Virus record (IMG/VR): IMGVR_UViG_3300029305_006219
Source: a virus
Direction: 5' to 3' (one strand)
DNA: 64,000 nt
Positions 7,041 to 29,517 of the stretch are shown here, in pieces. The position numbers were made by a program, and so were the translations under genes. Below the pieces are notes generated by a model. The model saw only the letters and a program-made list of their open reading frames with translations, was not told where the DNA came from and did not search any database. Within the stretch, counting starts at the first letter, position 1; each line of letters starts with the position of its first letter.

Positions 7041-7054
7041 GGAGATGAATTATA

Positions 7055-8600: not shown

Positions 8601-8618
8601 GTGAACAAGGGCGCAGAT

Positions 8619-9759: not shown

Positions 9760-9816
9760 CATTTGTCAAGAGGTTTGGTAAAAGTTTTTGAAAAATTTTT
9801 TTGGTATGAGGGAGAA

Positions 9817-10227: not shown

Positions 10228-10306
10228 AGTTTTCTACCTTTGCGATCTGTGACCGCCCTTTCAAAATTTTTTATTTCAAGAGGATTTTCCTCTTGATTAC
10301 ATATAT

Positions 10307-10335
10307 ATTATATCACAAGTTTGTGATTTTGTCAA
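10307..10335 (-). promoter_or_regulatory. early leftward promoter (class A)
   Basis: The minus strand reads TTGACA-N17-TATAAT (plus-strand attatatc...ttgtcaagggg). Confidence 0.5.
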
Positions 10336-10429
10336 GGGGTTTTTGAAAAGTTTTTCAAAAATTTTTTATTTTTTTCAGTGGTTGCAACTACGGGACGATG
10401 CCTCGCAAGGTCGTTCTATCCGTCACCGC

Positions 10430-10476
10430 CCCTTGACTACGATAATATTATATCATAAAAAGATAAATTTGTCAAT
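10430..10476 (-). promoter_or_regulatory. early leftward promoter (class B, with upstream TGCACAA operators)
   Basis: The minus strand reads TTGACAaatttatctttttatgaTATAAT. It lies about 80 nt upstream of the class-A promoter, a tandem arrangement. Confidence 0.45.
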
Positions 10477-10491
10477 AGAAAATGGGAAAAT

Positions 10492-10545
10492 AATTTGCAC
10501 AAATTTGAGAGGAATTTTGGTGAGAAAATTGTGCAACTTGCACAA
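10492..10545. promoter_or_regulatory. operator-like palindromes AATTTGCACAAATT and TTGTGCAAcTTGCACAA
   Basis: A perfect 8-1-8 inverted repeat at 10529-10545. The same 17-mer recurs at 12857-12873 and 16958-16974, and related half-sites occur upstream of other class-B promoters. Confidence 0.5.
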
Positions 10546-10557
10546 AAACGCACAAAT

Positions 10558-10625
10558 CGGCCCAGCGGCGGCCGCCGTTGGGCCGGTCAAAAAAAGACCT
10601 CTGCCGTCGCAGAGGTCTATCCTCG
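10558..10625 (-). terminator. tandem terminator: a GC-rich palindrome plus a hairpin with T7
   Basis: ggcccagcggcggccgccgttgggcc, then hairpin agacctctg..cagaggtct followed on the minus strand by T7. Confidence 0.5.
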
Positions 10626-10798
10626 AGGTTGACCATTCTCGCTTTCTCGCCACTCCTTGCGCATAGGGGACTTTGGTTTTAATGGTCTGCAAAGGCGTGT
10701 GATTTGAACACACATCTGTTGGAAACGAAACCAACTGTTCTTCCATTAAACTACCCTTTGTTATGTATGAGGGGCGCATTTGCGCCCCTGTGCCTCAC

Positions 10799-11203
10799 TC
10801 ACGCAAGGCGAAAGTAAGTGACCTTTTTGTCAATGGTCTTGACTACATCACCGCAGTCAACGAGCTTTTTAAGCATAGAGGAAACTCGCTGTGAAGATGT
10901 TTCCTTACCATCTGCCCACTCAAACTCTGCGATACGAGAATCCTTTGCTATCGCACCGCACTGCATACCCTTTACATCGGTTGCTTCTGCGAGAACATCA
11001 TGAATGAGGTCAAGGAAAGTATCAACTTCCTCTGCGCGCTTTGCGCTGACCTTACCACTCTTGCTTTCAAGCTGACCGAGCTTCTTTTCGGCAAACTCGA
11101 TTACTTTATCCATAGGGATTGTGGTCGGCTCTCCGCTTGCCATCTTGATGATTTCCTCATACATCTGCTTCTGTGTGTACTTGATTTCCTTGATTTCTGC
11201 CAT
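10799..11203 (-). CDS. small protein, paralog family member 3 (134 aa)
   Basis: Third member of the family, e.g. ...SSQRVSSMLKKLVDCGDVVKTIDKKVTYFRLA. TGA stop. Confidence 0.55.
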   Translation of the reverse strand: MAEIKEIKYTQKQMYEEIIKMASGEPTTIPMDKVIEFAEKKLGQLESKSGKVSAKRAEEVDTFLDLIHDVLAEATDVKGMQCGAIAKDSRIAEFEWADGKETSSQRVSSMLKKLVDCGDVVKTIDKKVTYFRLA

Positions 11204-11354
11204 AATTTTTTTCCTCTCTTGCTATTAGGTTGCAACCCTTTAATTTTATTTATCAGAGGTATTCCCTCTTGATTACATATATATTATACCATACTTTTTG
11301 GTATTTGTCAATAGGTTTTTGAAAAATTTTTTATTTTTTTTCTTGGGTAGAGGG

Positions 11355-12074
11355 TTATTCACCCTCTACCTCTTTGCGCTTATGAAAGGGATATACCCAT
11401 TCACCCTCTGGAGTTAAGCAACCGAGTTTCGTGCGCTCTTGGAAGATATTACAACCTCTTTTTCCAAGTTCACAAAGAATACGGAGTTCCCATTGAACAT
11501 CGGAAAGTGCGGTATGTTCCTCAACAAAATCTTTATCTTGGTTAAGAAATGCGGTTACACCCTCAACAGAGGTCGGTATATATTTACCACTTGGAGTGCG
11601 GAGTTCGTGTTCGTTGCAAAATGCGATATAATCTGCGGTAGAGCATATGTCGTATTGTGCATTACACCATATATCTATAACCTCGATTTTGTCAAGTGGA
11701 TTCAAAATACCGAGCGCAGTTGCGGTTCTGCGGAATTTGTCCTCGTCAAACTCGGAGTTATAGGCAAAGCCATACTGTATGCCATATCGGTCAATATCTC
11801 TTGCTATTTGCTCAAATATCTGTTTTTCGGTACGGAGTATTGCCGTTCCGTTCTCAACATTCAAGTCAAACTTTGCGAGTTTTTCTGCTTTGACGAACAT
11901 ATCATTCAAGAGCCAAATGCGGTTGTGATAATGTTTGCCTACAAGATAGTCTTTGCCTTTGAGTATCTTATACTTAAAGGTTGTTAAGTCAACATCTGCT
12001 ATACAATAGCCTATGTTAAGTAGTGTTTGGGTACAACACCCTGCGGTTTCGGTATCAAATACCATAATGTTCAT
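11355..12074 (-). CDS. DEDDh-family 3'-5' exonuclease (DnaQ / RNase T-like), 239 aa
   Basis: Exo I motif MVFDTETAG, a later FDxxF block and the Exo III motif H-TALSDVQWE. Intact ORF with a TAA stop. Confidence 0.7.
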   Translation of the reverse strand: MNIMVFDTETAGCCTQTLLNIGYCIADVDLTTFKYKILKGKDYLVGKHYHNRIWLLNDMFVKAEKLAKFDLNVENGTAILRTEKQIFEQIARDIDRYGIQYGFAYNSEFDEDKFRRTATALGILNPLDKIEVIDIWCNAQYDICSTADYIAFCNEHELRTPSGKYIPTSVEGVTAFLNQDKDFVEEHTALSDVQWELRILCELGKRGCNIFQERTKLGCLTPEGEWVYPFHKRKEVEGE

Positions 12075-12159
12075 TTTTTCTTTTCCTCTCTTTCTGTCAT
12101 AGGGAGTAGCCCTCGCTCTCCACTCGACATATATATTATATCACATCTTGACGAATTTG

Positions 12160-12606
12160 TCAAGAGGTTTTACAAAATTTTTTCAAAATTTCAAAAATTT
12201 TTTCGGGCGGAAATGCGTCACCCTTAGTCCACTCAAGGCGGTTGCGCTCTTCATCGTCAAACAGTATGCCCTCACTCTTGGCTACGGACGATTTGGGTGT
12301 GCCATATGGAACGATATGCAATTCATCAAAAATAACGGACTTCAAGTGCTTTTTGAGCCATTTGCGCTTGGCTTTAGTGACCGCCTTGTTATAGTCCTCA
12401 GTTGCGGCTTTAGACAGCCACGATATAACACCTATATGAACGCCATTGCGCTGAGCCTTATTCAATGCTCTTGCAAGTGCAGACATATTGTGCATAGGTC
12501 TTGCTTCTTCATATGGGCGCGTTCGCTTGGCTTCAAGGTCATCGAGCCAGCCTTCGACCGCATAAAGGTCAGCAACGGTGCCGTCAAGGTCTAAATAAAT
12601 TGTCAT
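12160..12606 (-). CDS. HAD-superfamily 5'(3')-deoxyribonucleotidase-like phosphatase (NT5C-like), 148 aa
   Basis: HAD motif I LDLDGTVADL at the N-terminus. Size and layout are typical of phage NT5C-like enzymes. Confidence 0.6.
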   Translation of the reverse strand: MTIYLDLDGTVADLYAVEGWLDDLEAKRTRPYEEARPMHNMSALARALNKAQRNGVHIGVISWLSKAATEDYNKAVTKAKRKWLKKHLKSVIFDELHIVPYGTPKSSVAKSEGILFDDEERNRLEWTKGDAFPPEKIFEILKKFCKTS

Positions 12607-12640
12607 TTGGTTTAGTTCCTTTCTTCCTTACTGCTCTTAT

Positions 12641-12669
12641 ATTATACCATACTTTGAGCGATTTGTCAA
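12641..12669 (-). promoter_or_regulatory. early leftward promoter (class A)
   Basis: Plus-strand attatacc...ttgtcaagggg with a 17-nt spacer. A second, class-B promoter lies at about 12745-12795. Confidence 0.5.
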
Positions 12670-12856
12670 GGGGTTTTTGAAAAATTTTTTCAAAAATTTT
12701 TGAGTGTCCACTGATTAGCAAGTCCATTTCACTGCTTTTGTTTCTCACCCCTTGACTACGATAATATTATACCACAAAGGGCGCAAAAAGTCAAGCGGTT
12801 TTGGGAATTTTCTTTTCGTCAATTTGCACAAACTTTTGGCGAAAAAATGCGTGGAA

Positions 12857-12935
12857 TTGTGCAATTTGCACAAAAACGGCGCCACACCGATCGGTGGCGC
12901 GCCGACCAAAAAGAGGGAGATTAATCTCCCTCTAT
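12857..12935 (-). promoter_or_regulatory. regulatory/insulator cassette: TTGTGCAAtTTGCACAA, then the GC palindrome ggcgccaCACCGATCGGTGgcgcgcc, then a terminator hairpin
   Basis: Same element order as at 10492-10625. The terminator hairpin agagggagattaatctccctct overlaps the TAA stop of gene 12921..13130. Confidence 0.5.
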
Positions 12936-13130
12936 TATGATTTTATTGATAACTTTTGCATAGTCTTCTTGCGCTCTTCGGAATGCTTGTGCCGCAGTAT
13001 GCAAAGGGCATTCTTCGCAATCAATTTCGCCGCACTGTATATGAATGCAGGGGTCAATCATTATAGCTTCAAGAGTGTCGTGCTGTTCTGTTGCGGTTAT
13101 TGTGACTATGATTTTCATATTTACCTCCAA
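12921..13130 (-). CDS. small Cys-containing protein (69 aa)
   Basis: ORF from the track with a TAA stop. Confidence 0.45.
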   Translation of the reverse strand: MEVNMKIIVTITATEQHDTLEAIMIDPCIHIQCGEIDCEECPLHTAAQAFRRAQEDYAKVINKIIIEGD

Positions 13131-13381
13131 ATTAAATTGATAAGATAATAAGTATTCATCGCAAATAATGCGACATTAAGTATTACAAGATTTATGCGCC
13201 TTGCGCTAAAGCAAAATGCGGTTGCGATTGCCGAGCCGATGAAGAATAATACTGTCATATCGGCGCCACACATAACACCTATTGCGCAAGCGGTATAGAT
13301 TAGTGCGGTGATATCGGTGATATCAAATTCATAGGGGCGGTCAAGGCTGAAATAGGTTTTTAGTTTACCAATCAAAGTCAT
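13121..13381 (-). CDS. small membrane protein (86 aa)
   Basis: Two hydrophobic segments. TAA stop. Confidence 0.5.
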   Translation of the reverse strand: MTLIGKLKTYFSLDRPYEFDITDITALIYTACAIGVMCGADMTVLFFIGSAIATAFCFSARRINLVILNVALFAMNTYYLINLIWR

Positions 13382-13553
13382 CTACCTCTTCTTCCTCATA
13401 ATCATTAGTATAATAATATTGCGTGGTTTTGAACTCTTTACCACAACCGCATTTATATTTGCGACTTGCGACAATTTGCTCTCCGTCCTCTTCATATTTT
13501 GCCGATAAATATTTAACTTGGGCGGTGCTACCGCAATTTGGACATTTAATCAT
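13365..13553 (-). CDS. small zinc-ribbon protein (62 aa)
   Basis: CPNCG...CGCGKEF motifs. Confidence 0.5.
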   Translation of the reverse strand: MIKCPNCGSTAQVKYLSAKYEEDGEQIVASRKYKCGCGKEFKTTQYYYTNDYEEEEVDDFDW

Positions 13554-13753
13554 TTTAATTTAAGCTCCTTTCTAATATTGATAATTCCACGAAATTCTGC
13601 GGTATAGATTGCTTCACAGTGAGGGCAACAAACTTTAGCCTCAAAATCTGCTTCATACCCGTCAAAATTCCATATCTTTGCATCCACATCTCCACAGAAC
13701 AAGTCATCTCTGGTTATAAGTTTATCGCAATTTGGGCATTTAATCATTTTCAA
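13550..13753 (-). CDS. small zinc-ribbon protein (67 aa)
   Basis: CPNC...CCPHC motifs. Confidence 0.5.
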   Translation of the reverse strand: MKMIKCPNCDKLITRDDLFCGDVDAKIWNFDGYEADFEAKVCCPHCEAIYTAEFRGIINIRKELKLK

Positions 13754-13945
13754 ATTCTCCTTGATATTCTCTTATTGTGCAATATCCACTCCAACGCCAT
13801 TCAAGGCATTGTTGATTGATATATTCTTGTGCCTGTTCTTGACTATCAAAGATAGGCGGTTTATTATCTCCTATGAATCCTTTATGCAAGAAGCCGTTTG
13901 GACAAGAGCGAGTATGAATATAAATTACATATTGCATAAGTATTA
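13740..13945 (-). CDS. small protein (about 68 aa); the longer track ORF 13740..14273 is rejected because it runs through the tRNA
   Basis: An internal ATG with RBS aagaggtaatacttATG lies just downstream of the tRNA. Upstream of it, the ORF translates tRNA and promoter DNA (..GSIPIRF.. matches the T-arm). Confidence 0.35.
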
Positions 13946-13957
13946 CCTCTCTTTTTT

Positions 13958-14032
13958 TGGTGAAGCGAATGGGAATTGAACCCACAACGCAGTTGAATAG
14001 TGTCAACCTCATTACCTTTGTGATACCGCTTC
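13958..14032 (-). tRNA. tRNA with CTA in the anticodon loop: candidate amber (UAG) suppressor tRNA
   Basis: Minus-strand sequence GAAGCGGTATCACAAAGGTAATGAGGTTGACACTATTCAACTGCGTTGTGGGTTCAATTCCCATTCGCTTCACCA. The 7-bp acceptor stem has one G.U pair. U8, A14 and GG are in the D-loop. The T-arm is GTGGG/CCCAT with loop TTCAATT. CCA is encoded. The anticodon stem GTTGA/TCAAC is perfect but the loop CACTAT has 6 nt, which is atypical, so the fold needs software confirmation. Confidence 0.6.
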
Positions 14033-14045
14033 TTATTACATTTAT

Positions 14046-14074
14046 ATTATACCATATAATCTTGCTTTTGTCAA
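14046..14074 (-). promoter_or_regulatory. consensus promoter driving the tRNA (TTGACA-N17-TGgTATAAT)
   Basis: The reverse complement reads cTTGACAaaagcaagattatatggTATAAT. The predicted transcription start is about 7 nt before the tRNA 5' end. Confidence 0.55.
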
Positions 14075-14217
14075 GAGGTTTTCGAAAAATATTTGCAACT
14101 ATTTTTCTTATCTCCGATACTTTCCTACTCAAAGCTTTCGTGTCCGTTCTCTTGTTGTACACCAAGTTTCTGATTTCCATTCCTTGCAAGTTAATTTCTC
14201 CGCACGAGGTTCCCCCT

Positions 14218-14258
14218 CTTGACATTATTATTATATCATACAATCGGGAAAATGTCAA
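14218..14258 (-). promoter_or_regulatory. second (class-B) promoter upstream of the tRNA
   Basis: The reverse complement reads cTTGACAttttcccgattgtatgaTATAAT. TGCACAA-type sites lie at 14275-14319, a GC palindrome at 14321-14347 and a terminator at about 14350-14385 further upstream. Confidence 0.5.
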
Positions 14259-14461
14259 GTGGTAATGTTGCACAAAGTTTCAACAAAAAAATGGCGGGAA
14301 GTGTACAAAATGCACAAAACGGAACGCGCCGGCCGGGCTCGTTCCGCTCGGATTTCAGGCAAAAAAGAAAAAACCCAGAACTCATGAAAAGCTCTGGAAA
14401 TTTGTTGAGAGGTCTACTTCGTGGAAATTCGGACTTGGCGCGACCGCCTTCGTCCGTCAGC

Positions 14462-14764
14462 TTAATGGCTGAAGTGTTTCAACACGTCTTGTACATTGTA
14501 CTCATTTTCATCATCACTCATAATTATAATTTTATTTTCCCATTCAGCAGGAATGCTTAAAATTTTAAATGTTTCCTTTAAGAATGAAATCATATTCGTA
14601 CAATCATTTTTTTGATTGTCAGAATGAAAGAGAAGGGCGCCCAACTCTTCACAATAAAGTGCATGAAGTGGATAGTCTTGCGCCGAGAGGGTTTCCCAAT
14701 CAAGGGGAGTAAGTGATGATTCAAAAGAAGTGATGACAAGAGCGTGGATGAAGTGATACTTCAT
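14462..14764 (-). CDS. hypothetical protein (100 aa)
   Basis: ORF from the track with a TAA stop. Confidence 0.5.
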   Translation of the reverse strand: MKYHFIHALVITSFESSLTPLDWETLSAQDYPLHALYCEELGALLFHSDNQKNDCTNMISFLKETFKILSIPAEWENKIIIMSDDENEYNVQDVLKHFSH

Positions 14765-14846
14765 ACCGCGTGACCTCCTTGTATCTCTTATTTCTTTTTA
14801 CATTTATATTATAATATAAAATTTTATAAAAATCAATGGGTGTGGA

Positions 14847-15055
14847 TTATTCCACACCCAAGAGTTCCTTTATTTTATTGACTACTTGCTCTTGTGCTTG
14901 TTTCAGAATGTAATAATCACAATTATCAAGTGTTGCAATATAATCATCTACCGCTATGCGGATTTCAATTTCATTACTATTATGATTAAGATCATACTCC
15001 TTAATGATTTCTTTTTCATTGATTTCTACGCCCGTAGTAATCTCTATATACATAT
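14847..15055 (-). CDS. small protein (about 68 aa, starting MYIEITTGVEINEKE)
   Basis: A strong RBS aaaaggagaaaacaatATG lies inside track ORF 14847..15173. A class-A promoter at 15386-15414 serves the operon. Confidence 0.45.
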
Positions 15056-15096
15056 TGTTTTCTCCTTTTGCGAATTTCCAAATTTTTCCAATGCGC

Positions 15097-15354
15097 CTAC
15101 CAAGCGACTCGGATATGATATCTACCTTCAAAAAGGTTTTTTTCAATCTCAGCCTTGTAGCCAAATTTTTCAAGATTCGCTCTTATGAGTTCGACCTCAT
15201 CTTTGGAAACCTCTTTTACTCCACTGAAATAACCTTGTGAAGCCCTTTTTTTGATGAAGCGCAACATCTCTTTCATTGCCCACGAATGCATGAATTGGTT
15301 TTGATTATTTTCTGCCATCTCTCTTGCTTCCTTTGCGGTCATAGGGTTTTTCAT
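15097..15354 (-). CDS. hypothetical protein (85 aa); the only early gene found that ends on TAG
   Basis: The stop codon is cta on the plus strand at 15097-15099, which is TAG on the minus strand. The frame stays open for about 22 more codons. Confidence 0.5.
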   Translation of the reverse strand: MKNPMTAKEAREMAENNQNQFMHSWAMKEMLRFIKKRASQGYFSGVKEVSKDEVELIRANLEKFGYKAEIEKNLFEGRYHIRVAW

Positions 15355-15428
15355 AAGTATTTCCTCTCTTTCTTTTAGTATATATATTATACCATACTTT
15401 TATATATTTGTCAAGTAGTTTTTGAAAA

Positions 15429-15653
15429 TTATTTGAAAAAAATTTCAAGCACAATTACATCGTCGCAACAACCCTCAATAGTTATTTCCATACTATCTAT
15501 CTTGCGGTTAGCATACTCTTTAATATGCTCACATTCTTTAACATACCAATCGATTGATTGAGCACCAAGCCATTGTTCTGCTTTGAGTAAGAAGTTGTCA
15601 TAAATGCGGATTTTATCTATGTTGTAGATAAGCGGAAGTTGTGCAAGTGTCAT
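15429..15653 (-). CDS. hypothetical protein (74 aa)
   Basis: RBS AGAGAGG. A class-B promoter lies at 15686-15714. Confidence 0.5.
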   Translation of the reverse strand: MTLAQLPLIYNIDKIRIYDNFLLKAEQWLGAQSIDWYVKECEHIKEYANRKIDSMEITIEGCCDDVIVLEIFFK

Positions 15654-15832
15654 AAGTCATTTTCCTCTCTTTCTTTTACACTTATATTATACCACAAATA
15701 TCGGGAATTGTCAATAGGTAATAATCAACAAAGTTTTGCGCCGATTTTTGTGCAAAATGCCAGCCCACAGATAAAACGGCTCGGCGCGCCCGATGCCGAG
15801 CCGCCAAAAAACAAAAGAGGGCAATCGCCCTC

Positions 15833-16213
15833 TTAGGTTTGATATTTAGTTATCTCTGTGGAAGAGCTTTGCGCCACCATTAGCGAAATACACCTTTGCA
15901 TTGTATCGAGTTCAACCACTCTGATGACTTTGCCTTTAGCATACGCATATCCGCACTCCCAAGCTGATCCAAGGTCACCATTGGCGCCTTCGCAAAAATA
16001 GAGAATTTCATCACATTCATCTATTGCTTGAACGTCGTGTTGGAATACCTTGCGCGCCCATTCGGAGTTAGGTAAAGCTTTAGCATTAGGTATCTCTAAT
16101 TCGTGGGGAACGTAAACTTTATATCCTAACTGTCGTAAGAGTTTTGCGTGCTTGTTTATTCTGTCCTTTTGGCTTTCGGTAAACATAGCACTTGCTATAT
16201 AAAACTTTTTCAT
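15833..16213 (-). CDS. nucleoside 2-deoxyribosyltransferase-like protein (NDT / Rcl-DNPH1 fold), 126 aa
   Basis: N-terminal FYIASAMFTE and catalytic-region DLGSAWECGYAYAKGKVI match the NDT family pattern (YxAGxxF ... D.G...E.GyA.a.gK). Confidence 0.55.
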   Translation of the reverse strand: MKKFYIASAMFTESQKDRINKHAKLLRQLGYKVYVPHELEIPNAKALPNSEWARKVFQHDVQAIDECDEILYFCEGANGDLGSAWECGYAYAKGKVIRVVELDTMQRCISLMVAQSSSTEITKYQT

Positions 16214-16238
16214 ATCTCACCTCTTGATAGTGGATAGA

Positions 16239-16457
16239 TTATTCATCTATCCACTCTTTTACTTTATAGGCTGTAACCTCGACAATATCAGCGGTGAATT
16301 TTATCTCTCCCGTAAAGTTATAGATTACGTAAGTATTACCTCTGTTATTTGTCGTAAACTCTCTTGCAAACTGAATTGCCATACTAAGATCGTCAAAATC
16401 AGCAATATGTTTGCCGTCCGCATAGACGCCATAGTCAAGAATGTCAAATTTTACCAT
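16239..16457 (-). CDS. hypothetical protein (72 aa)
   Basis: RBS AAGGAAGG. A class-B promoter lies at about 16486-16522, directly preceded by ATTTTGCACAAAATT. Confidence 0.5.
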   Translation of the reverse strand: MVKFDILDYGVYADGKHIADFDDLSMAIQFAREFTTNNRGNTYVIYNFTGEIKFTADIVEVTAYKVKEWIDE

Positions 16458-16555
16458 AATATTAATACCTTCCTTCCTTTACTGTGCCTATATTATATCA
16501 TATTACTTGCCTCTTGTCAATAGGCATTTTGCACAAAATTTTGCGGCGGGTCTTG

Positions 16556-16864
16556 TTAACAATATACAAGACCCATATCACGCCAACGGAGAATAGAAAT
16601 TTGAGAGCAGGCGCGCCCGACCTCAAGCGCTTTTTTCAAGGTACTTTCGCGATGGCTCTTGTCTATGTAATAAACTCCAGAACTATACCATATACCACAG
16701 TTGCCTTCGTATGCCTTAACGGCGTTGATTGCTTCGCGCGGGTCACGGGTTTCGATACCTTCGGTGGCTACTTGGTAGCCTGTTTTGAACGTGACGCGCT
16801 GACCCTTTTTGAGAGTTAAGCCGTCATTATCTTTAAGTTTGAGAATCGAGCGAATGTTAATCAT
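16556..16864 (-). CDS. hypothetical protein (102 aa)
   Basis: A class-B promoter at about 16895-16925, with TTGTGCAAcTTGCACAA at 16958-16974 upstream of it. Confidence 0.5.
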   Translation of the reverse strand: MINIRSILKLKDNDGLTLKKGQRVTFKTGYQVATEGIETRDPREAINAVKAYEGNCGIWYSSGVYYIDKSHRESTLKKALEVGRACSQISILRWRDMGLVYC

Positions 16865-17041
16865 AGGTGTTTCCCCTTCCTTTATCTTACGTACTTATTA
16901 TACCATAAAAGCGGGAATTTGTCAATAGGCAAAAGTAACAAAGTTTTGATAGTAAATTTGTGCAACTTGCACAACTATGCGTAAAGCGTCACGCCGCGGC
17001 CCTTGGCGTGACGGCGAAAAAAAAAGAGGGCGCAAGCGCCC

Positions 17042-17242
17042 TCATATGAAGTCGGCAAATTGGTCTTCCACCCAAGCCATTATAAGAGGATTAAAGGTTT
17101 GTATCTCAACCTCTACGCATGAGGGATGGACTTGGAGAAGAATTGCCTCTCCTGCGTTATTAGCGGCGAGGAATGAGCAGACTTTTTGCACCGCCATACC
17201 GCTTTCAAAAGTTTTATTAAGCATAAAATTCTTATACTGCAT
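17042..17242 (-). CDS. small protein (about 66 aa)
   Basis: RBS ataagaaaggagatatatATG. It is the C-terminal part of track ORF 17042..17443, whose 5' part overlaps gene 17271..17558 out of frame. Confidence 0.4.
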   Translation of the reverse strand: MQYKNFMLNKTFESGMAVQKVCSFLAANNAGEAILLQVHPSCVEVEIQTFNPLIMAWVEDQFADFI

Positions 17243-17270
17243 ATATATCTCCTTTCTTATGGGGATTGCC

Positions 17271-17558
17271 TTAGCAATCCCCCGTATAGCAACCCATATA
17301 GGGGTCAAAGCCGTTTTCATCAGGCTCTTCTTCCTCATAGTCATACCAGTCGTCATTATAATAGAGGGTCTCAGAGCCGTGATGGTAAATGATGCGCGCC
17401 ATATCTGTCGCCTCTGCTTCAGTAAGATAGCCATTAGCAACAAGCTCTATAAGTCTGCCTATTGCAAGAGAATGAGTATCTTCAAGTCCAAATTCCGTAC
17501 AAGCAAGATTGAAGCAAGTCTGCAAGTCGAGTTTTGTGTAATCCATAATGCACCTCAT
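17271..17558 (-). CDS. hypothetical acidic protein (95 aa)
   Basis: ORF from the track. A class-B promoter lies at about 17596-17632. Confidence 0.5.
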   Translation of the reverse strand: MRCIMDYTKLDLQTCFNLACTEFGLEDTHSLAIGRLIELVANGYLTEAEATDMARIIYHHGSETLYYNDDWYDYEEEEPDENGFDPYMGCYTGDC

Positions 17559-17832
17559 AGTATTTATTTGAGAGTCTATTCCCTCTCTTCTTGCCTATAT
17601 TATATCATATATTCTTGCATTTGTCAATGAATAAAATGTAAACAATATATGAATTATGGGACGGGATCCAATCATAGTTTATTCAATCAATTGAAATAAA
17701 AAATTTACAAATTGTTCACAAATTGCTTTAACGGTGCGCGCCGACCGTGCCCGCACCGAGCGATATAAAAAGGCGCGCCAAAGGTCACCCTAAGGCGCGT
17801 TATAGTGTTGATATGAGATGCTAAGGGCGCGC

Positions 17833-19346: not shown

Positions 19347-19826
19347 TTATAGTTCCTTAAAACGCTCGTTTTCTATTTCTCCTAGACTCTTTCGAATCTC
19401 TTCAGGATAATGATGTTTTACGCATTTAAAAATATTCTTTTTACCCATTGGATATAATTCGCCAACATGGCGGAAAAAGAAGCATATAGGCGGCAAATGT
19501 GTAACTATATCACTTCCATTTCTAAACATGGTGAAATGTGCCCAGCGCTCTCTTAATTCTTTCTTAACGCGCCAGCCGCCATAGATTCTAGGTCCATCAA
19601 ATCCAATACCGGTTAACCCCTCTGCGCGCAAGTCTTCTCTATGAAACCACACAGCTTCATGACATAATGCGGCAAGAGCTGCGCCATGACTATAACCAAC
19701 TACTACAATACGTTTCCACCTATAATCGCCGCTAAATCCTTTCTCGGTTGCGCGCCTAATAACAATATCTTCTATTGTTTTCCAGCACTTTAAGAAGCCT
19801 CCATGTACCCTATATTTTATCTTCAT
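19347..19826 (-). CDS. class-3 lipase-like alpha/beta-hydrolase fragment (159 aa), possibly N-terminally truncated
   Basis: GxSxG nucleophile elbow GYSHGAALA. The protein is shorter than typical Lipase_3 family members. No start codon is available further upstream in frame. Confidence 0.4.
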   Translation of the reverse strand: MKIKYRVHGGFLKCWKTIEDIVIRRATEKGFSGDYRWKRIVVVGYSHGAALAALCHEAVWFHREDLRAEGLTGIGFDGPRIYGGWRVKKELRERWAHFTMFRNGSDIVTHLPPICFFFRHVGELYPMGKKNIFKCVKHHYPEEIRKSLGEIENERFKEL

Positions 19827-20167
19827 ATCTTTATAGGGGCGGCGCCAGTAGGCGAAGTTAGCGCACCAATCTAGCTTACCGCGACTTGGCTAGAAAAAGA
19901 TGTAAAGTGTCTTATCGCTCTCCAAAAATGCATAATTTACTTTGCCCTCTGCCTCTTGGTACTCAATCCAATTATTGCACCAATTAAATAACTATACTAA
20001 ATTCATGGCGCGCCCACCCTTAGCCGCTTAAGGTAACTGTCTAAGGAAGATATAACCTAGACCGGCGCTCTCTTAAAATAATAATCATCTCTTTTCTCCT
20101 TTCATATGATGATACTATTATTATAACAGATTTTTTTATAAAGTCAAGTACTTATTTCATTAACCTC

Positions 20168-20196
20168 TTGACATAGTAAAAATTTTTTGGTATAAT
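20168..20196 (+). promoter_or_regulatory. consensus sigma-70 promoter at the head of the rightward structural operon (TTGACA-N17-TATAAT)
   Basis: ctcTTGACAtagtaaaaattttttggTATAATttat, then the RBS aaaggag and the ATG at 20227. Confidence 0.6.
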
Positions 20197-20226
20197 TTAT
20201 TTAAAGATAGATGAAAGGAGTTTTGA

Positions 20227-21399
20227 ATGGATACATTACAAACTTTAGACGACCTTTTGTCTGATGAGGATTTAGATATTGAAGACTCTTCTGAACAAGA
20301 GGAAGAAAATATAGAAGAGAAAATTATCACTGAAGATATTGCGCAAACTATAAAATTAGATTATAAGTTAGCTACCTGCGAAGAGCGCTCGGCGTTGGTT
20401 AATAAGATTATAGCCCAAACCCCTGCCGCCTCTTTAACAAATCGTTATTTAGAAATTTTAGGCGATTATATTATGGGAGGTATCACAAAAGAAGAACGTA
20501 AATCGCACCTATACCTTACTGACAATAGAATGATTACTGTTGCAAGGCGCGAAACGTCTTTTGAAGGTTTGGCAGAAAAATTTGAAAATGGAGAAGATGG
20601 TATTTATAATTTAATGACAAATGATAAAAATATTATCTTTGCACCAAAAAATACAATCACTGAAGAAGATATAGAAAATGTTCCTGGTCTTAAGCAATTG
20701 CGCGAGGCTATTATTCAAATTGAAGAGGAGGGGAAACGTGCTATAGGAAAGCGCAAATACCTTCTCAAAAAGCAACTCATAGAAATGCGTAAAGACCAAT
20801 ATATCTTAAAGAATTCATATTAGGCCCCCATGGTTTGCACTCCTTGTGCAAAAGGAGCAAATAAAATTGATTTAAGTGAAAAAAAATATGTAGATGAAAA
20901 TGGAGATCCACAAAGCACAGGTTTAATTTCTTTTTTTAAACCAGAGCATATTCAAGCAATTTTAAATAATTATAATGCTTTAAAAATAGAGACTAAAGGT
21001 AAATATTCTAGTGACTTTTTTTATTTGATGGAAGATTTTGATAAATTATTACATAAGGCATTAGATAATTATCCTATGTATTTTGATATTGTAAAAATGA
21101 AAGTAAATGGAAAAACAAATATTGAAATTCAAAAAATGTTAAAAGAAAAACATAATACAAGTTTTACTGTGTAGTACATTTCCAGTCTATGGTGTAAAAA
21201 AATTCCTAAAATTATAGCTGAGAAAGAACAGCATGACTTCTTAATCTGGTATTATCGTAATGAACAAAAAGGCCCATGGAAGCGTTGCTCTTGTTGTAAA
21301 GAATTTAAACCAGCTAATTCGCGCTTTTTCTCTAAGAATCGCACAAGTAAAGATGGATTTTATAGCATTTGCAAAATGTGCCGCAATAAGAAAAAATAA
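20227..21399 (+). CDS. hypothetical protein (about 390 aa, 2 in-frame TAG) with an acidic N-terminus and a C-terminal CxxC..CxxC motif
   Basis: Track ORFs 20227..20823 and 20830..21174 plus a further segment share frame 1. They are separated only by TAG codons and end on TAA at 21397-21399. Confidence 0.5.
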
Positions 21400-21480: not shown

Positions 21481-22692
21481 ATGGCTAAATATCATTGTAA
21501 TAAATGCAATAAAGAATTAGAAGAAATTAATTTTTATAAGTATAGAGATGGTAGTTATGTAGAACTTTGTAAAAAATGTTTGACAATGCATGTTGATGTT
21601 TTTGATCCTAGCACTTTTACATGGCTATTAGAAAAATTAGACGTTCCTTATATCCCTCAAGAGTGGAACGCAGTAATTGAAAATAAAATGGCGAAAAAGC
21701 CAGATAAGCCTATTTCACATTCTGCTGTATTTGGATCTTATTTATCGAAGACTAAATTAAAACAGTGGAAGGATTATTATTGGGCAGATAATGAGCGTAT
21801 TCAAGAATTATATTATCAACAAAGCGCGCAGGCTTCTGCGGAAAAGGCTGAACTTGATGCGATGTATCAGGAGTAGTTTGAAGCGGGTCAGATTTCAGAA
21901 GCATAGTATAAAACTCTTACCTCCCCAAAGGCGCGCAATGATTCTATGATGGCGGCGCTTAGCGCAGGTGGCCCTTATTTAGGAGAAAATAACTCTTTTA
22001 ATGAGAATGATTTTATTGATGACTCTGCATTACCCGATTTATCTGCGCAAATGACACAAGAAGAAAAGATTACCTATGCAATGAAATGGGGTAAGTTATA
22101 TAAGCCTAGTGAATGGATAGAGCTTGAAACAGATTATCAAAAGATGAAAAAATCATTTGATATTCAAGATGCAGACTCTGAAAATACATTAATTCTTTTA
22201 TGTAAAACAAATTTAAAAGCTAACCAAGCTATTGACTGTGGCGATATCGAAGGCTTTTAGAAATTATCAAAAGTATCTGAATCATTGCGTAAATCAGCTA
22301 AGTTTACAGCAGCGCAAAATAAAGAACAAAAAGATGATTATGTAGATTCTATTGGATAGCTTATCGCTATTTGCGAAAAAGATGGTTTTATTCCAAGGTT
22401 TGCGACAGATATACCTCAAGATAAAGTTGATATGACTTTACGAGATATGAATGAATATGTGCGTAAGCTAGTTACCCAAGATTTAGGCTTTGGACAACAA
22501 ATTGAAGACTCTTTAAAGAAAATTATGATTCAAAATGAAATGAATCGTGAGGCGGAAGCGCGCCAGGCAGAAGAGGGTGATGACTTTGACCCTTATGCGC
22601 CAACGGAACTCGAGGATGAAGATATTGTTGCGCATTATGACAATTTACTAGAGATGAGACAAAAAGATCGAGATTTACTCGAGAAAGAGTGA
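21481..22692 (+). CDS. hypothetical protein (about 403 aa, 4 in-frame TAG) with an N-terminal zinc ribbon; candidate small terminase subunit by position
   Basis: Track ORFs 21481, 21946 and 22432 are all in frame 1 and joined through TAG only. The N-terminus carries CNKCNK...CKKC. The gene lies immediately upstream of the large terminase. Confidence 0.45.
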
Positions 22693-22696
22693 AGCT

Positions 22697-24445
22697 ATGG
22701 CAGTTCAAGATCTAATTAATCTCGCCCTTTGTGGAGACCAGAAAAAAATAGGGTTGTCAAAAGAACGCATTATGAAATAGATACCAATAGTGCGGTAGTA
22801 TGTTGCCTATTGGCGCGAATATCCTGATATGTTTGTAGAATTCTTATGCGGTCCAGAGAACAAAGAAAATTTTTAGTTATTTTTTTATTAGCGTTTATTT
22901 TTACGCGCAGTTATGCGTCATAGATATGCCTATGCAACGTTTCCTCGTGCGTATTCAAAAAGTTTTCTCTCAGTACTTGTATTAATGCTAAGATGTATAC
23001 TATATCCTGGTAGCCATTTATTCGTTACCACAGGGGGTAAAGAGCAAGCGGCAGGTATTGCTAAAGAAAAATCAGACGAGCTTTGCAAATTAATACCTGG
23101 ATTAAAGAATGAGCTCGATATGACAAGAGGTAAGACTAAAACAAGTAAAGATAATATTGAATTAATATTTAAAAATGGTTCAAAATTAGATATTATGGCG
23201 GCGCGCCAGTCGTCTCGTGGTAAACGTGCTACCGGTGGTCTAATGGAAGAGTGTATTCTTATAGACTAGACCTTGCTGAACGAAGTTATTATTCCTACAA
23301 TGAACGTAGATCGAAGATTATCAGACGGTTCCCGCGTAGAGGAGGAAACTGTTAACAAGAGTCAGATTTATGTGACGACCGCAGGATGGAAGAATAGCTT
23401 TGCTTATGAAAAACTTATAGAGTTGCTAATTCGTCAAATTATTTATCCTGATGAAGCAGTTGTTATGGGTGGAACCTGGCGTATTCCAGTTATGGAAAAA
23501 TTACTAAAAAAGAGCTTTATTGAAGAACTAAAATTAGACGGAACTTACAATGATGCTTCCTTTAGTCGAGAATATGAATCAGAATGGAGTGGAGATGCTG
23601 AAAATGCCTTCTTCTCTGCTGAAAAATTTGATAAGCATCGTCAATTATTACAACCAGAATACGAGTATTCCGGACGTACGTCAAAGAGTGGATATTACGT
23701 ACTTGGCGTCGATGTGGGTCGTCTTAAGTGTACAACTGAAGTTTGTATTTTCAAAGTCACTCCTTAGGCGCAAGGCGCAGCTTTAAAATCTTTAGTCAAT
23801 CTCTATTCCTATGAAGCCGAGGACTTTGAAGCACAAGCTATTAAAATTAAAAAGTTATTTTATAAATACAAGGCTCGTATGATCGCAATTGACGCCAATG
23901 GACTTGGAGTTGGTTTAATAGACTTCATGACCAAAGGACAAGAGGATCCAGAAACAGGTGAATATTTGCCGCCTTTTGGAGTTGATGGAGGCACATCTGA
24001 TGAGTTTAATGAGCAGTATAAGAAAGTTAAAGGCGCCGGAGTGGAAGAAAATGCAATGTATTTAATTAAAGCTAATGCGCCTATTAATACAGAAGCTCAT
24101 ACTTACGTACAAACTCAATTGGTTGGAGGTAAAATTAAACTTTTAATTGATGAAACTTAGGCTAAAACAAAATTAATGGCAACAAAGATGGGACAAGAAA
24201 TGGATGCGTCCAAGCGCGCCGATTATTTAATGCCATTTACACAAACTACAATTTTGCGTGAGTAGCTTTTGAATCTTGTAGAAGATAACGAAGGTACAAA
24301 TATTATTCTTAAGCAATCATCTCGCGGGATTCCAAAAGATAAGTTTTCTGCTTTTGAATATGGATTATATTATATTAAGCAAGAAGAAGACCGTAGTCGA
24401 AAACGTAAAAAGAGAAATATATCAGAGATGATGTTCTTCTCTTGA
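22697..24445 (+). CDS. terL: terminase large subunit (about 582 aa) with at least 8 in-frame TAG codons
   Basis: Frame-2 ORFs 22913, 23273 and 23879 and their flanking segments are contiguous through TAG. The N-terminal ATPase-like block is ..ATFPRAYSKSF..VTTGGKEQA... The gene ends with TGA at 24443-24445 followed by TAA. The position before the portal gene supports the call. Confidence 0.6.
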
Positions 24446-24518: not shown

Positions 24519-24875
24519 ATGAAAGCAAGTCGAGGCGAAATTAAAATTTGTGATATTTTAACCGAGGCTGGCGTCTCTTTTACAGAAGAGTATTCATTTT
24601 CCGATCTTGTTGGTTATACTAAAACCCCTTTAAGATTTGATTTTGCAGTATTAGACGATGATGGAGAGGTTGATTTTTTAATTGAATATTAGGGTATTCA
24701 ACATTATGAACCTAAGTCTAAATTTGGCGGAGTGGCTGGATTGCGCCAATAGCAATACTACGATATGTTAAAAAGGGAGTATTGTAAAAAACATAATATT
24801 CCCTTGGTTTTAATTCCTTATTATGATGAAGGAAGAATAAACTACGATTATATCTTTAAGGCCGCTGGCTATTGA
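24519..24875 (+). CDS. DUF559/Vsr-like PD-(D/E)xK endonuclease (about 118 aa, 2 in-frame TAG), likely a homing endonuclease between terL and the portal gene
   Basis: Motif RFDFAVLDDDGEVDFLIEY(Q)GIQHY matches the DUF559 pattern. An upstream motif-B promoter and the RBS aaaggag are present. TGA stop. Confidence 0.5.
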
Positions 24876-24917: not shown

Positions 24918-26522
24918 GTGCTTAGTTTGGACGAAAGAATAGAGCAAATTCATAAAAAAGGCTTTAACATGAGCACCCCAAGAAGTATCCCAACAGAAGG
25001 GAATGTAATTCCTGAATTAGATTATTCACGAATAAAAATAGGAATTAAGGCGCTTGATGATGCAGTTATAAATCTAGGAGCATATAAAAAACTAAATCCT
25101 AATATGACAAAAGAAAGGATTTAGAAGGCAATTGTAACTGGAGATATAGAATTTATGCGTGAAGCATCTAATTTTTATTTTAAAATAAGTGGTATCTATT
25201 CAAGACTATGTAAACACTTAGCTAATTTTTATAGATATGATTGGTTTATTACTCCTTATGTTAAAAATGCTACTCCAGAAAAGGTTATTGATGGCTTTAA
25301 TAAATGGAATGAGTATTTAGATAATTTTGGAGTAAAAGAGAATTTAGGCGATATAGCTTTGAAAGTATTGCGTAATGGATGCTATTATGGATATATTATA
25401 AAAACAGACAATGGCGCTTACCTTTAGGAGCTATTACCAAAGTATTGCCGCAGCCGCTTTAGTGTCAAAGGGCGCCCGGCGGTTGAATTTAATATGAAAT
25501 TCTTTAATGACTATTATAGAGATGAAGATTATCGTATTCAAGTGTTGAAAATGTTCCCTAAGGACTTTCAAAAAGGTTATACTGCTTTTATAAATGGAAA
25601 GCTGCCACCTGTTGAGCCGGGGGATACTGCGGGATGGTATCTACTTGATCCAGAATGTGCTATTAAGTTTAATATTAATGGCGAAGATTATCCTCCTTTT
25701 ATTTCAGTTATTCCACATATTATTGATTTGGATGCTGCGCAAGAGTTGGATAGAAAGAAAATGGCGCAAAAACTTCTAAAAATTATTATTTAGAAAATGC
25801 CATTAGACAAAAATGGTGATTTAATATTTGATGTTGAGGAAGCACAAGAGCTTCACAATAATGCAGTTAAAATGTTGGGCAAGGCTATTGGTATTGATGT
25901 ATTAACGACTTTTGCAGATGTAGAAGTCGCTGACATGGCTGATAAAAATACTGCTACTACTATTGATGAATTAGAAAAGGTTGAAAGAACCGTGTATAAT
26001 GAGTCAGGTACGGCATAGAATTTATTTAATACTGATGGTAATATTGCTCTTGAAAAAAGTATTCTTGATGACGAAGCTAATTTATATAATCTTATTCTTT
26101 AGTTTCAATCATTTTTGAATTAGCTTATTGAAGATAAGAAAAATAAAAAATTGTATTATAAAGTTCAAATATTACCAACTACAATTTATAATTATAAAGA
26201 TATGTCAAAAATTTATAGAGAGCAAAGCGCGCAAGGAGGTTGTTCTAAGGTTCTTGCAAGTGTTGCACTTGGGCAATCTTATGCTTCAGTAATAGCCACA
26301 GCGAAATTTGAAAATGAAATTCTTGATGTATCTAACCTTTTCCAATCGAAATAGTAGAGGGAAGAGGCAAAAGCAAAAATGAAAACAGATAATAACAAAA
26401 CTACTAATCCTGCAAATAAACAGGAAGAAGTTGTTGTTGAAAAGAAAAAAGTCGGGCGCCAAGAGAAGCCTGATGATCAAAAGTCAGAAAAGACAATTAA
26501 AAATCGCGAAGCCATGAGCTGA
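24918..26522 (+). CDS. portal protein (about 534 aa, about 8 in-frame TAG)
   Basis: Five track ORFs (24918, 25155, 25494, 25797, 26151) are all in frame 0 and joined only through TAG, with a TGA at 26520-26522. The position between terL and the scaffold/capsid genes supports the call. Confidence 0.55.
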
Positions 26523-26539: not shown

Positions 26540-27901
26540 ATGCACAAATCAGTTGCTACGATAAACTCTCCTGAGTTTATCAATTTAAAACCACTTGATA
26601 TTAATCCTTTAATGTCTGCATGTGAAATTAAAGTTTTGTATGTTGGCGAAAATCGTAATAGGTCATATATAACCAAGGATGTTGCAACCGAAATGGCTAA
26701 GACATTACGAGGTGCGCCTATTGTAGGTTATTATAAAGAAGACATTGGAGACTTTAGAGACCACGGACAAGAAGTTATTATTGATAACGATGGGATTAAA
26801 TTTAATTGCAAAACTGTTCCTTATGGTTTTGTAGCTCCAGATGCAAAGGTATGGTTTAAAGAATTTGAAGATACTAATGACTTTGGAGAAACTATTTTGA
26901 GAGAATATCTTATGACTACAGGATATTTGTGGACTGGCCAATTTGAGGAATGTAAATCTGCTGTTGAGGGCGATGGCAAGCCGCACTCGATGGAATTAGA
27001 TGAAGCAACCGTTAAAGGACATTGGGAAACAAATACCAAAGGCATGGATTTCTTTATTATAAATGACGCAATTTTTTCAAAACTTTGCATTTTGGGCGAC
27101 GATGTTGAACCTTGTTTTGAAGGCTCAAGCATAAAAGCACCAAATGTTAGTGCGTCTTTTACGAAAGTAGATGATACTTTCAGACAAACATTATTTACTA
27201 TGATGCAGGATTTAAAGACTGCATTAGGAGGAGGTCAGCAAATGATAGACGCTATCGTCGATAATGCTGTAGTTGAAGAGCCTATTGTAGCGCCTGCGGC
27301 AGAACCTGCTGCGGAACCTATTATCGAGCCTGAAACTCCAGTAGAACCTTCTTTTGCTGCATCACAAGAGCCAGCTGTTGATACACCTGCAGTGGTTGAA
27401 GAGCCTGCGGCAGAACCTGTCGTAAATCCTGAAGACCCTGCTCCTGTAGATCCTGAACCGGCGCCCGCGCCTTCAATAGAAGAGCAGTTTACTGCACTTC
27501 AGCAGGAACTTGAGGAAGAAAGAACTGCACACTCTGCGCTTGCAGAACAGTATGCGCTACTTCAATCTCAGTATAATACCCTTTCAGCTGAGCACCTAGA
27601 ACTTGTTGAATTTAAAAGACAAAGTGACGATGCAAAGAAAGACGAAATGATTGGAAAATTCTATATGCTTAGCGATGAAGATAAGGCAGAGGTCTTATTT
27701 AATAAAGCTAATTACACTGTAGAAGAAATTGAAGAAAAACTTTCTGTAATTTGTTTCAGAAAAAAGGTCAATTTTGAATTAGAGGATAACTCTAAAAATA
27801 ATAATAAAGTAGAGCAACCACCTGTGACATTTAATATGTCCAACCCTGGTGCTTCAATGCCTGCTTGGTTACAAGCAGTTGAAAATGCAAAAAATAAATA
27901 A
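26540..27901 (+). CDS. scaffolding protein with a P/A/E-rich linker and a coiled coil (453 aa), possibly fused to a prohead protease domain; no in-frame TAG
   Basis: Intact track ORF. The central repeat region is AAEPAAEPIIEPETP..., followed by a C-terminal coiled coil. The position supports the call. Confidence 0.45.
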   Translation: MHKSVATINSPEFINLKPLDINPLMSACEIKVLYVGENRNRSYITKDVATEMAKTLRGAPIVGYYKEDIGDFRDHGQEVIIDNDGIKFNCKTVPYGFVAPDAKVWFKEFEDTNDFGETILREYLMTTGYLWTGQFEECKSAVEGDGKPHSMELDEATVKGHWETNTKGMDFFIINDAIFSKLCILGDDVEPCFEGSSIKAPNVSASFTKVDDTFRQTLFTMMQDLKTALGGGQQMIDAIVDNAVVEEPIVAPAAEPAAEPIIEPETPVEPSFAASQEPAVDTPAVVEEPAAEPVVNPEDPAPVDPEPAPAPSIEEQFTALQQELEEERTAHSALAEQYALLQSQYNTLSAEHLELVEFKRQSDDAKKDEMIGKFYMLSDEDKAEVLFNKANYTVEEIEEKLSVICFRKKVNFELEDNSKNNNKVEQPPVTFNMSNPGASMPAWLQAVENAKNK

Positions 27902-27921
27902 TTTTAAGGAGGACATATAAC

Positions 27922-28446
27922 ATGGCTACTATTAAGCGTGTTGGATTTGGTCAAGTCGAGCCTAATCATCTTTCCGCTCAAAGAAATGGTCAAGTTTACG
28001 CTTCTCTTCCTTGCAATAAGGATATTGCAATCCTTGAAAATGGTCAGTTTGTAAAATATGACTATGCAAAGAATGAAGTTAACTTTACTGGCGAAGGCGA
28101 GTGGATGCTCGTTATGAATGAAGTCAAGCTTTATGATGACTTCTGGAGAGAGTCTTACAAAGATTTTGCTCTTATTAAAGATAATTATAATAATGGTGTT
28201 ATGGCGCCTAGAGTTTTAAAGACTATGCCTGGCGACATTTACACAACAAACTGCCTTGAGGACGCTAATACCTCTGGCAAAGCTACTTTCACTGGCACAG
28301 AGGAAATTGAGGTTGGCACTGAGCTCAAGATCAATGCTAAAGGTTTCCTTTCTACTAATGGAACTAGCGATATTGTATTCCAAGTTGTAAAAGTTTACAC
28401 AATGCCTGATGGCCAATAGGGCGTCAAGGTTATGCGTATTAAATAA
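27922..28446 (+). CDS. head protein, possibly a decoration protein (165 aa, or 174 aa if the terminal TAG is read through)
   Basis: Strong RBS aaggagg. The ORF ends on the TAG at 28417-28419, and a TAA lies in frame 9 codons later. Confidence 0.45.
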
Positions 28447-28464
28447 TAAGGGAGGGATATAGTA

Positions 28465-29517
28465 ATGGCATTAGATAGAAATAGTTTATTTACATTAGGT
28501 CACCGCGTTGCTGACGCTAATCCTTCTGCTCCCGTTGCTTATTCTTTTGAGGATAAGAGTTATAGCTATGCAGATTTAAATAATGCTTTCCGTGCAGAGC
28601 TTAAGGATCTTATTGGTACATATGCTCTTTGGAGAGAGAACCATAATACAGTTTATACTCTTATGGAGGAAATTATCACTGATAAGCTTCCTGCTAAAGT
28701 AATGCAACAATATGGCGCATTTGCTGAAGTTAAGACATATCGTCAAGGCGAAAAGCCTGTATTCGTTCAGAGAATTACCGAGGCTTCCAAGAGACGTGCA
28801 AAGCAGTTTATTGCAATGCCTGCAGGTCTTGCTGGTCGTTATGAGGTCTTTAAGCTTGATGGACGTAGCTACGAAGTAAAGACTTCTGCAATGGGTGCAG
28901 CATGTCAGATCGCTATTGAGGAATTCCTTGATGGTAGAATTGATATGGCTACAGTTCTTGATATTGTTATGGAAGGTATGGATGATAAGATCTATGCTGA
29001 AATCGCAAATGTTCTTATCGCTGCTGTTGAGAATATTCAAGATGCTAACAAGGTTCTTGCTGATAGCTTCGTTGAGGCTGAAATGGACGCTCTTCTTGCA
29101 GTTGCGGACACTTATGGAAACGGTAGATCGACGATTTATTGTACATTTGAGTTTGCTTCTCAAATGCTTCCTGACAATGCTTGGGATCAAGGAAGAATGT
29201 CTGATAGTATGAAGGATGAGTACTGGAGAAATGGTCGTCTTGCAAACTACAAGAACCATCAAGTCATCGTTCTTCGTCAATCTTTTGTTGATGAAACAAA
29301 TACTGAAAAGGTTATCGATCCTTCATATGCTTGGATTATTCCTGGCGGCGCTGAGAAGCCAATCAAGATCGCTTTCGAAGGTGATACAATGATTAAAGAA
29401 GAAGATAATGAAGACTGGTCTAAGAGCATCCACTTCTATAAGAAGGTTGGCGTTGCGGCTATGATCAACAATGATATCTGTGTTTATAAGAACAGATCTC
29501 TTAAGAAAACCAGATAA
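28465..29517 (+). CDS. major capsid protein (350 aa, no in-frame TAG)
   Basis: Strong RBS aagggaggg. Size and position downstream of the scaffold gene fit a major capsid protein. A stem-loop follows at 29535-29569. Confidence 0.55.
   Translation: MALDRNSLFTLGHRVADANPSAPVAYSFEDKSYSYADLNNAFRAELKDLIGTYALWRENHNTVYTLMEEIITDKLPAKVMQQYGAFAEVKTYRQGEKPVFVQRITEASKRRAKQFIAMPAGLAGRYEVFKLDGRSYEVKTSAMGAACQIAIEEFLDGRIDMATVLDIVMEGMDDKIYAEIANVLIAAVENIQDANKVLADSFVEAEMDALLAVADTYGNGRSTIYCTFEFASQMLPDNAWDQGRMSDSMKDEYWRNGRLANYKNHQVIVLRQSFVDETNTEKVIDPSYAWIIPGGAEKPIKIAFEGDTMIKEEDNEDWSKSIHFYKKVGVAAMINNDICVYKNRSLKKTR

Follow-up and report, generated by a model that had tools for sequence, protein, structure and literature searches.

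The promoter P1 and the first gene of the assembly block

The 64,000-nt stretch of IMG/VR virus record IMGVR_UViG_3300029305_006219 that we analysed (hereafter, the window) belongs to a large SPbeta-like or phAss-1-like gut siphovirus of Firmicutes that apparently lacks YonO, the late RNA polymerase of SPbeta. The SPbeta-like assignment is based on the presence of the Pfam families YonG_N, YonD_N and YonB among the neighbouring genes, and more broadly the phage groups with phAss-1 and Enterococcus phage EF1. The plus strand from position 20227 to the end of the window is a packaging, head and tail block, and there is little doubt that the promoter in front of it, P1 at 20168–20196 (+), is real, conserved and heads this block. 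P1 reads TTGACA TAGTAAAAATTTTTTGG TATAAT, with both hexamers perfect (12/12; −35 at 20168–20173, −10 at 20191–20196), and conforms to the sigmaA/sigma-70 pattern of TTGACA and TATAAT placed 17±1 bp apart. Its 17-nt spacer carries an A5T6 tract at 20178–20188 and a TGn extended −10. A ribosome-binding site, AAAGGAG (20214–20220, +), lies 6 nt 5' of the ATG at 20227; a motif of this type precedes nearly all plus-strand genes. The sequence-only reading had described a perfect promoter with an ideal ribosome-binding site at this place, and both are confirmed.

The exact pattern TTGACA-N17-TATAAT occurs 15 times in the window (0.01 copies expected from dinucleotide shuffles), 13 times on the minus strand (9741–17627) and twice on the plus strand (20168 and 24872); P1 is therefore neither a chance match nor unique. 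Among the 74 IMG/VR loci that carry a homolog of the first gene (the sigma-like gene, see below), 71 have a P1 equivalent (48 perfect) that matches at least 11 of the 12 consensus positions and lies in the 300 nt before the gene, as compared with 1/62 control windows; the remaining three loci have a 10/12 match and an unchanged layout. This conservation at the homologous place is well beyond chance. An AnTn tract is found in the spacers of 63 of the 71 P1-type promoters (37/42 after removal of redundancy), with the A|T junction mostly 7–8 nt 5' of the −10 hexamer, and when the P1 regions of six phages are aligned, nothing is invariant except both hexamers and the intervening A/T tract. A look-alike, TTGAAA-N17-TATAAT (11/12) at 20582–20610 (+), lies within the first gene, where these letters encode the conserved peptide FENGEDGIYN, and this explains why the look-alike turns up in many relatives.

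The first gene (20227–21399, +) was taken by the sequence-only reading for the start of the structural genes; it is, instead, a regulator-like gene. It encodes a conserved 390-aa protein with a helix-turn-helix (HTH) that weakly resembles the sigma4/LuxR kind and a C-terminal CxxC...CxxC zinc ribbon, and contains two in-frame TAGs, at codons 199 and 316. Its product matches PHROG 5767, annotated as 'sigma factor', nearly end to end (E 3e-44), homologs carry the same label in Enterococcus, Brevibacillus and Mammaliicoccus phages, and gut metagenomes contain more than 5000 members of the family. Membership in the sigma-70 family found no confirmation. Pfam and NCBIfam searches with four homologs returned no domain, a profile search of PDB sequences and a Foldseek comparison with the PDB returned no match to the first-gene product (the AlphaFold2 model had a predicted local distance difference test value, pLDDT, of 77), and hhalign against Escherichia coli FliA, RpoH and RpoE gave probabilities below 1%. 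The HTH similarity is weak, no sigma2 domain was detected with Pfam, NCBIfam or hhalign, and we do not assign the product to the sigma-70 family. We describe it as a protein with an HTH and a zinc ribbon that is probably a DNA-binding regulator.

A second plus-strand stretch (3702–8604) has positive GC skew and open reading frames (ORFs) that require TAG to be a sense codon. It encodes a 264-aa HTH protein (5052–5846) with weak matches to transcription regulators and to a sigma-factor PHROG.

Two classes of consensus promoters

Two classes of promoters exist in this genome and both are built on consensus hexamers. The early class is a cluster of 13 perfect promoters at 9741–17627 (−), which drive small TAG-free genes and one odd tRNA. 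All 13 share the design aaAACCyC-TTGACAAAt-N8-rTrTGrTATAAT-ATAwrt, with an upstream AAACC element, AAT 3' of the −35 hexamer and a TRTG motif, and the same design is found in the relatives. P1 and two further plus-strand promoters, P2 and P3, are devoid of these flanks; their spacers carry instead a palindrome of an A-tract and a T-tract, centred ∼ 7–8 nt upstream of the −10 hexamer. This second class (class II) comprises P1 (20168), P2 (24872) and P3 (36134) on the plus strand and two minus-strand promoters, at 1692 and 1791, to which that at 20147 may have to be added. The division is sharp: an AnTn or TnAn tract is present in the spacers of 46 of the 62 non-redundant late-class promoters and in none of the 55 early-class ones. 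The view that there is no obvious activator site near P1 overlooks this conserved spacer of the A5T5 type.

P1, P2 and P3 head the packaging, head and tail operons. P2 (24872–24900, +; TTGACA-AGATTGAAAATTTTGAA-TATAAT) is perfect, stands in front of the portal gene and is preceded by a hairpin at 24773–24805; it is kept in the relatives L008 and L009, and a match of at least 11/12 is found at its place in 20 of the 74 relatives. P3 (36134–36162, +; TTGACT-TTTTAAAAATTTTTTCT-TATAAT, N17, 11/12) precedes the operon with the 3142-aa tape-measure gene and is more widely distributed, with matches of at least 11/12 at the same place in 68 of the 76 relatives vs 4/72 controls. The two minus-strand promoters with A/T-tract spacers (1664–1692 and 1763–1791, −) have the form TTGAAA-...AAAAATTTTTGG-TATAAT. 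The possible sixth member (20120–20147, −; TTGACT-N16-TATAAT) has an A7 tract in its spacer, mirrors P1 and serves the divergent Lipase_3/esterase-like gene (19347–20006, −). The latter has two in-frame TAGs, which shows that recoding is not an exclusive property of the plus strand. An antisense TTGACA-N18-TATAAT (12/12) at 32756–32785 (−) lies within plus-strand coding DNA and may be due to chance.

The layout can be compared with that of SPP1 and other phages whose late promoters have an unusual −35 region and require an early factor; these likewise have canonical sigmaA early promoters and late clusters bounded by terminators (PMC6316719). The late promoter PL1 of SPP1 has an atypical −35 region and depends on an early factor (PMC6316719), whereas the assembly-operon promoters described here are canonical and differ from the early ones only in the spacer and flanks. 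To this extent the sequence-only reading, that P1 differs from classic late-promoter control, is right, as its −35 region is canonical.

Gene order and the absence of YonO

In SPbeta, the late operon is transcribed by YonO (PMC5467207, Forrest et al. 2017) and the gene order is yonO, yonN, yonK ... yonG, yonF (encoding TerL) and yonE (encoding the portal protein). The virion module of the window contains homologs of YonG, YonF/TerL, YonE/portal, YonD and YonB in identical order. The first gene is followed by the gene for a YonG-like protein, the probable small terminase (21481–22692, +; four TAGs; PF27269 YonG_N, phrog_3314; annotated as small terminase in relatives), the large terminase gene (22697–24445, +; eight TAGs), a gene for a 118-aa HNH-like endonuclease (24519–24875, +) and the portal gene (24927–26522, +; eight TAGs; phrog_2739, E 6e-67). 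Further downstream are the YonD scaffold-like gene (26540–27901, +) and the YonB capsid-like gene (28465–29517, +), with a gene for a 174-aa protein between them (within 26540–29517, +), the major-tail-like (tail-tube-like) virion gene (33363–34286, +; phrog_2729), which is followed by a terminator at 34318–34336, and the gene for a 504-aa Ala-rich protein (53967–55481, +); the scaffold-like, capsid-like, tail-tube-like and 504-aa genes contain no TAG. In all relatives this HNH/homing-endonuclease-like gene occupies the same position, after the terminase gene and before the portal gene (∼ 14.2–14.6 kb in L007–L010), so that it is probably a fixed accessory of packaging and not a mobile insertion. 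Near the end of the window, the phrog_16490 gene is split into two parts (60710–61159 and 62367–62687, +), between which are an ORF for a GIY-YIG-like homing endonuclease (61336–62136) and a match to the group I intron model RF00028 (62027–62223; 45.8 bits, E 4e-10, slightly below the gathering score).

The sigma-like gene and yonO appear to be alternatives. In Brevibacillus phage Sundance and in Mammaliicoccus phages, both SPbeta-like, the sigma-like gene is found at the exact place of yonO, just upstream of a yonN-like gene and away from the terminase genes. Of the phage records, 40 encode a YonO homolog and 14 carry the sigma-like gene, with no overlap between the two sets; a tblastn search with YonO found no match in the window, which represents 64 kb of the ∼ 135-kb genome. 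Unlike in SPbeta, the assembly operons here have promoters of the host sigmaA consensus and not the YonO start site. A search for YonO as a relative of the first gene found none, and the 'exonuclease V' encoded beside the sigma-like gene of Sundance, considered as a hidden polymerase, turned out to be a RecD2-type helicase.

The annotation of the first gene as a sigma factor and its occurrence in the yonO slot would fit a classic cascade, in which P1 is an early or middle promoter that serves solely to produce a phage sigma factor or activator and the structural genes are transcribed mainly from factor-dependent promoters of a non-sigmaA type. The same scheme would account for the strong terminators beyond ∼ 46 kb (46261–46290, 55500–55526, 59723–59747 and 59802–59822), none of which is followed by a good sigmaA promoter. 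Transcription cascades driven by phage factors are characteristic of SPO1 and T4. SPP1 offers a further precedent (PMC6316719). Such a cascade is nevertheless unlikely here. A de novo motif search of the plus-strand intergenic gaps recovered nothing beyond the ribosome-binding site and, in three to four gaps, a weak TAAGGACA-like signal, and the AT-rich candidate for a late motif, AATTTTAATATATA, was dropped, as its 16 matches amount to no enrichment (8.6±3.0 expected) and fall mostly in coding DNA. For the distal late region (46–64 kb), queries with the 504-aa and 288-aa proteins yielded relatives that were poor or too few for footprinting. The structural block itself contains conserved promoters of the sigmaA consensus type (P2 and P3), the putative regulator lacks a detectable sigma2 domain, and in relatives L007–L010 the gap between the sigma-like gene and the YonG gene is no more than 15 nt, so that the regulator gene is predicted to be co-transcribed with the terminase genes.

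Another design known in phages of Gram-positive bacteria has the late activator encoded just upstream of terS (PMC3753634). The RinA, ArpU and Ltr activators (PMC3753634, PMC3152322) resemble the present case in that a regulator-like gene directly precedes the genes for the YonG-like probable small terminase and TerL; moreover, one of the Ltr families resembles region 4 of sigma-70, and the first-gene protein has a weak sigma4/LuxR-like HTH. There are also differences. The protein encoded here has 390 aa and a zinc ribbon, in contrast to the small basic proteins of 120–150 aa, and it matches none of the RinA, ArpU or Ltr (LtrA, LtrB, LtrC) models in Pfam and NCBIfam. The short gap in L007–L010 leaves no room for a target promoter or repeats between this gene and the next, there is no conserved motif in the corresponding 81-nt gap of the window, and the downstream promoters have a canonical −35 region.

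One could also argue that the promoter classes have no temporal meaning, such that all consensus promoters fire together, the spacer affects only strength or bending and the first gene encodes no transcription regulator but a packaging accessory or a DNA-binding protein. Consistent with this, the zinc ribbon of the first-gene product is similar to the N-terminus of YonG, its gene adjoins the terminase genes, and a comparison of the P1 regions of relatives revealed no operator-like repeats outside the promoter. We regard this possibility as highly unlikely, given that two sharply distinct promoter designs have been held across dozens of diverged genomes, that the gene lies apart from the terminase genes, in the place of yonO, in Sundance and the Mammaliicoccus phages, and that the sigma-like gene and YonO are mutually exclusive.

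TAG recoding and the timing of assembly genes

When TAG is read as a sense codon, the long ORFs of the plus strand add up to 15121 aa instead of 5667 and include the 3142-aa ORF. The plus-strand assembly block contains 205 in-frame TAGs, which make up 32% of its Gln-type codons, as opposed to none among the 57 Gln codons of the small minus-strand early genes (8.6–18.7 kb), and no case of TAG as a stop was found among the genes examined; this is the pattern of genetic code 15. In the late block TAG apparently means Gln, and the database copy of the first-gene protein has TAG translated as Q. The window thus agrees with the published descriptions of recoded phages (Borges et al., bioRxiv 10.1101/2021.08.26.457843; PMC10607447), in which TAG encodes Gln in the structural block only and early genes use the standard code. 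It further resembles the phAss-1 group, where TAG is read as Gln and the tape measure protein has ∼ 3150 aa (PMC10607447). Promoters were not analysed in these papers, and the phAss-1 study makes no mention of promoters, sigma factors or RNA polymerase (PMC10607447). Two features distinguish the present case: standard-code relatives share the promoter layout, and TAG is missing from the most abundant virion genes.

Distribution of the promoters among recoded and standard-code loci showed that the layout is independent of recoding. P1 equivalents with at least 11/12 matches are found in 34 of the 35 recoded loci and 33 of the 35 standard-code loci, and P3 in 62 of the 68 standard-code loci. Enterococcus phage VRE9_2, which uses the standard code, shares the layout and has a perfect promoter before the sigma-like gene. 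In L010, from a contig of a Ruminococcus metagenome-assembled genome, 11 genes are devoid of in-frame TAGs and TAG serves as a stop, yet the layout is retained. The promoter layout thus predates recoding or is independent of it.

These observations bear on the proposal, derived from the sequence-only reading, that P1 is constitutive, being used by the unmodified host polymerase from the start of infection, and that timing is enforced solely after transcription, by a phage suppressor tRNA that decodes TAG. The proposal accords with the perfect consensus of P1, with the presence of TAGs in the first gene, terminase, portal and tape measure genes and their absence from the early genes, and with a regulatory role of recoding for late and lysis genes, as hypothesised in the literature (bioRxiv 10.1101/2021.08.26.457843). 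Perfect 12/12 P1 promoters are also somewhat more common in recoded loci (30/35) than in standard-code ones (17/35), with all loci counted, including redundant ones. Still, we find it quite improbable. The standard-code relatives share the promoter and the gene order, and TAG reading therefore cannot be the main timer. The TAG positions in the first gene vary between recoded relatives. The scaffold-like, capsid-like, tail-tube-like and 504-aa genes are TAG-free (P values of 0.002, 0.014, 0.045 and 0.0006, respectively) and have their own ribosome-binding sites, which means that TAG cannot delay their translation and that these proteins would be made regardless; the abundant virion genes are likewise devoid of TAG in recoded relatives, the capsid gene in every one of those examined. 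Avoidance of TAG by what are presumably the most abundant virion proteins suggests that TAG decoding is limiting or costly. In addition, P1 carries a conserved spacer that is specific to its class, and searches for a suppressor tRNA(CUA) in the window, in the loci of the relatives and in the tRNA cluster to the left of the window were negative. What stands of the idea of a TAG gate is that the block requires TAG to be a sense codon; the inference that TAG decoding must set the timing does not hold in the form given.

The cluster just mentioned consists of 14 tRNA genes (L101, 13945–19943) just past the left edge of the window, on the same strand as the early genes. It is located downstream of the A/T-spacer promoters at 1692 and 1791, with no other consensus promoter in between. 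Among its members are a tRNA-Gln(UUG), located where the contig ends, and a tRNA-like gene of 91 nt whose anticodon was called as four bases. The sole tRNA in the window (10689–10760, −) lies inside the early promoter cluster and is not a CUA suppressor; it has an 8-nt anticodon loop (TTTCGTTT), reminiscent of frameshift-suppressor tRNAs, an ARAGORN anticodon 'tcgt' and an Rfam tRNA score of 44.6 bits.

Overall, we lean with moderate confidence towards an explanation that combines the host sigmaA polymerase, a separately controlled class of promoters and a TAG lock that was added in some lineages. On this explanation, which includes P1 being a working promoter for the main host RNA polymerase, the sigmaA holoenzyme would transcribe the assembly operons from class-II promoters, and P1 would serve first for transcription of the gene for the conserved HTH and zinc-ribbon protein. 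This protein may be a DNA-binding regulator of the assembly genes, acting in the role that RinA/Ltr activators or YonO have in other phages of Gram-positive bacteria, and the A/T spacer may be the site that gives class-II promoters a timing different from that of the early ones. Recoding of TAG to Gln would provide an extra translational layer in some lineages, a lock that could stop completion of the virion (terminase, portal, tape measure and tail proteins) until a suppressor becomes available. TAG recoding is therefore best seen as a lineage-specific add-on and not as the reason for the constitutive-looking promoter. The regulatory role of the A/T spacer and the first gene is a more tentative proposal than the scheme as a whole, albeit a quite possible one.

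Several observations weigh against this scheme. The P1 of the Enterococcus phage has no A/T tract. The class-II promoters at 1692 and 1791 drive TAG-free genes, so that promoter class and recoding do not correspond one to one. The motif search found no separate factor-dependent late-promoter motif, the A/T tract could act simply on promoter strength or DNA bending, without any regulator, and the assignment of the two classes to early and late times is itself predicted from the sequences. We are doubtful of a stronger version, in which the A/T-spacer promoters are a dedicated phage regulatory class under the control of the first-gene protein, the family of this protein replaced YonO in SPbeta-like phages of Firmicutes and recoding was layered on later in some lineages.

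Discussions of recoded gut phages usually treat the alternative code as the sole timer of late genes. That the same host-type promoters are present with or without recoding, and that TAG is absent from abundant virion genes, speaks for recoding as a safety measure added on top and against it as the primary clock. The analysis draws attention to two elements that can be tested, the conserved promoter spacer and an uncharacterised regulator-like protein encoded at the place of the SPbeta RNA polymerase. Experiments are within reach, as Enterococcus phages EF1 and VRE9 are standard-code relatives that can be cultured. If the stronger version is true, a family of more than 5000 members with no assigned domain family would determine the transcription of assembly genes in place of YonO.
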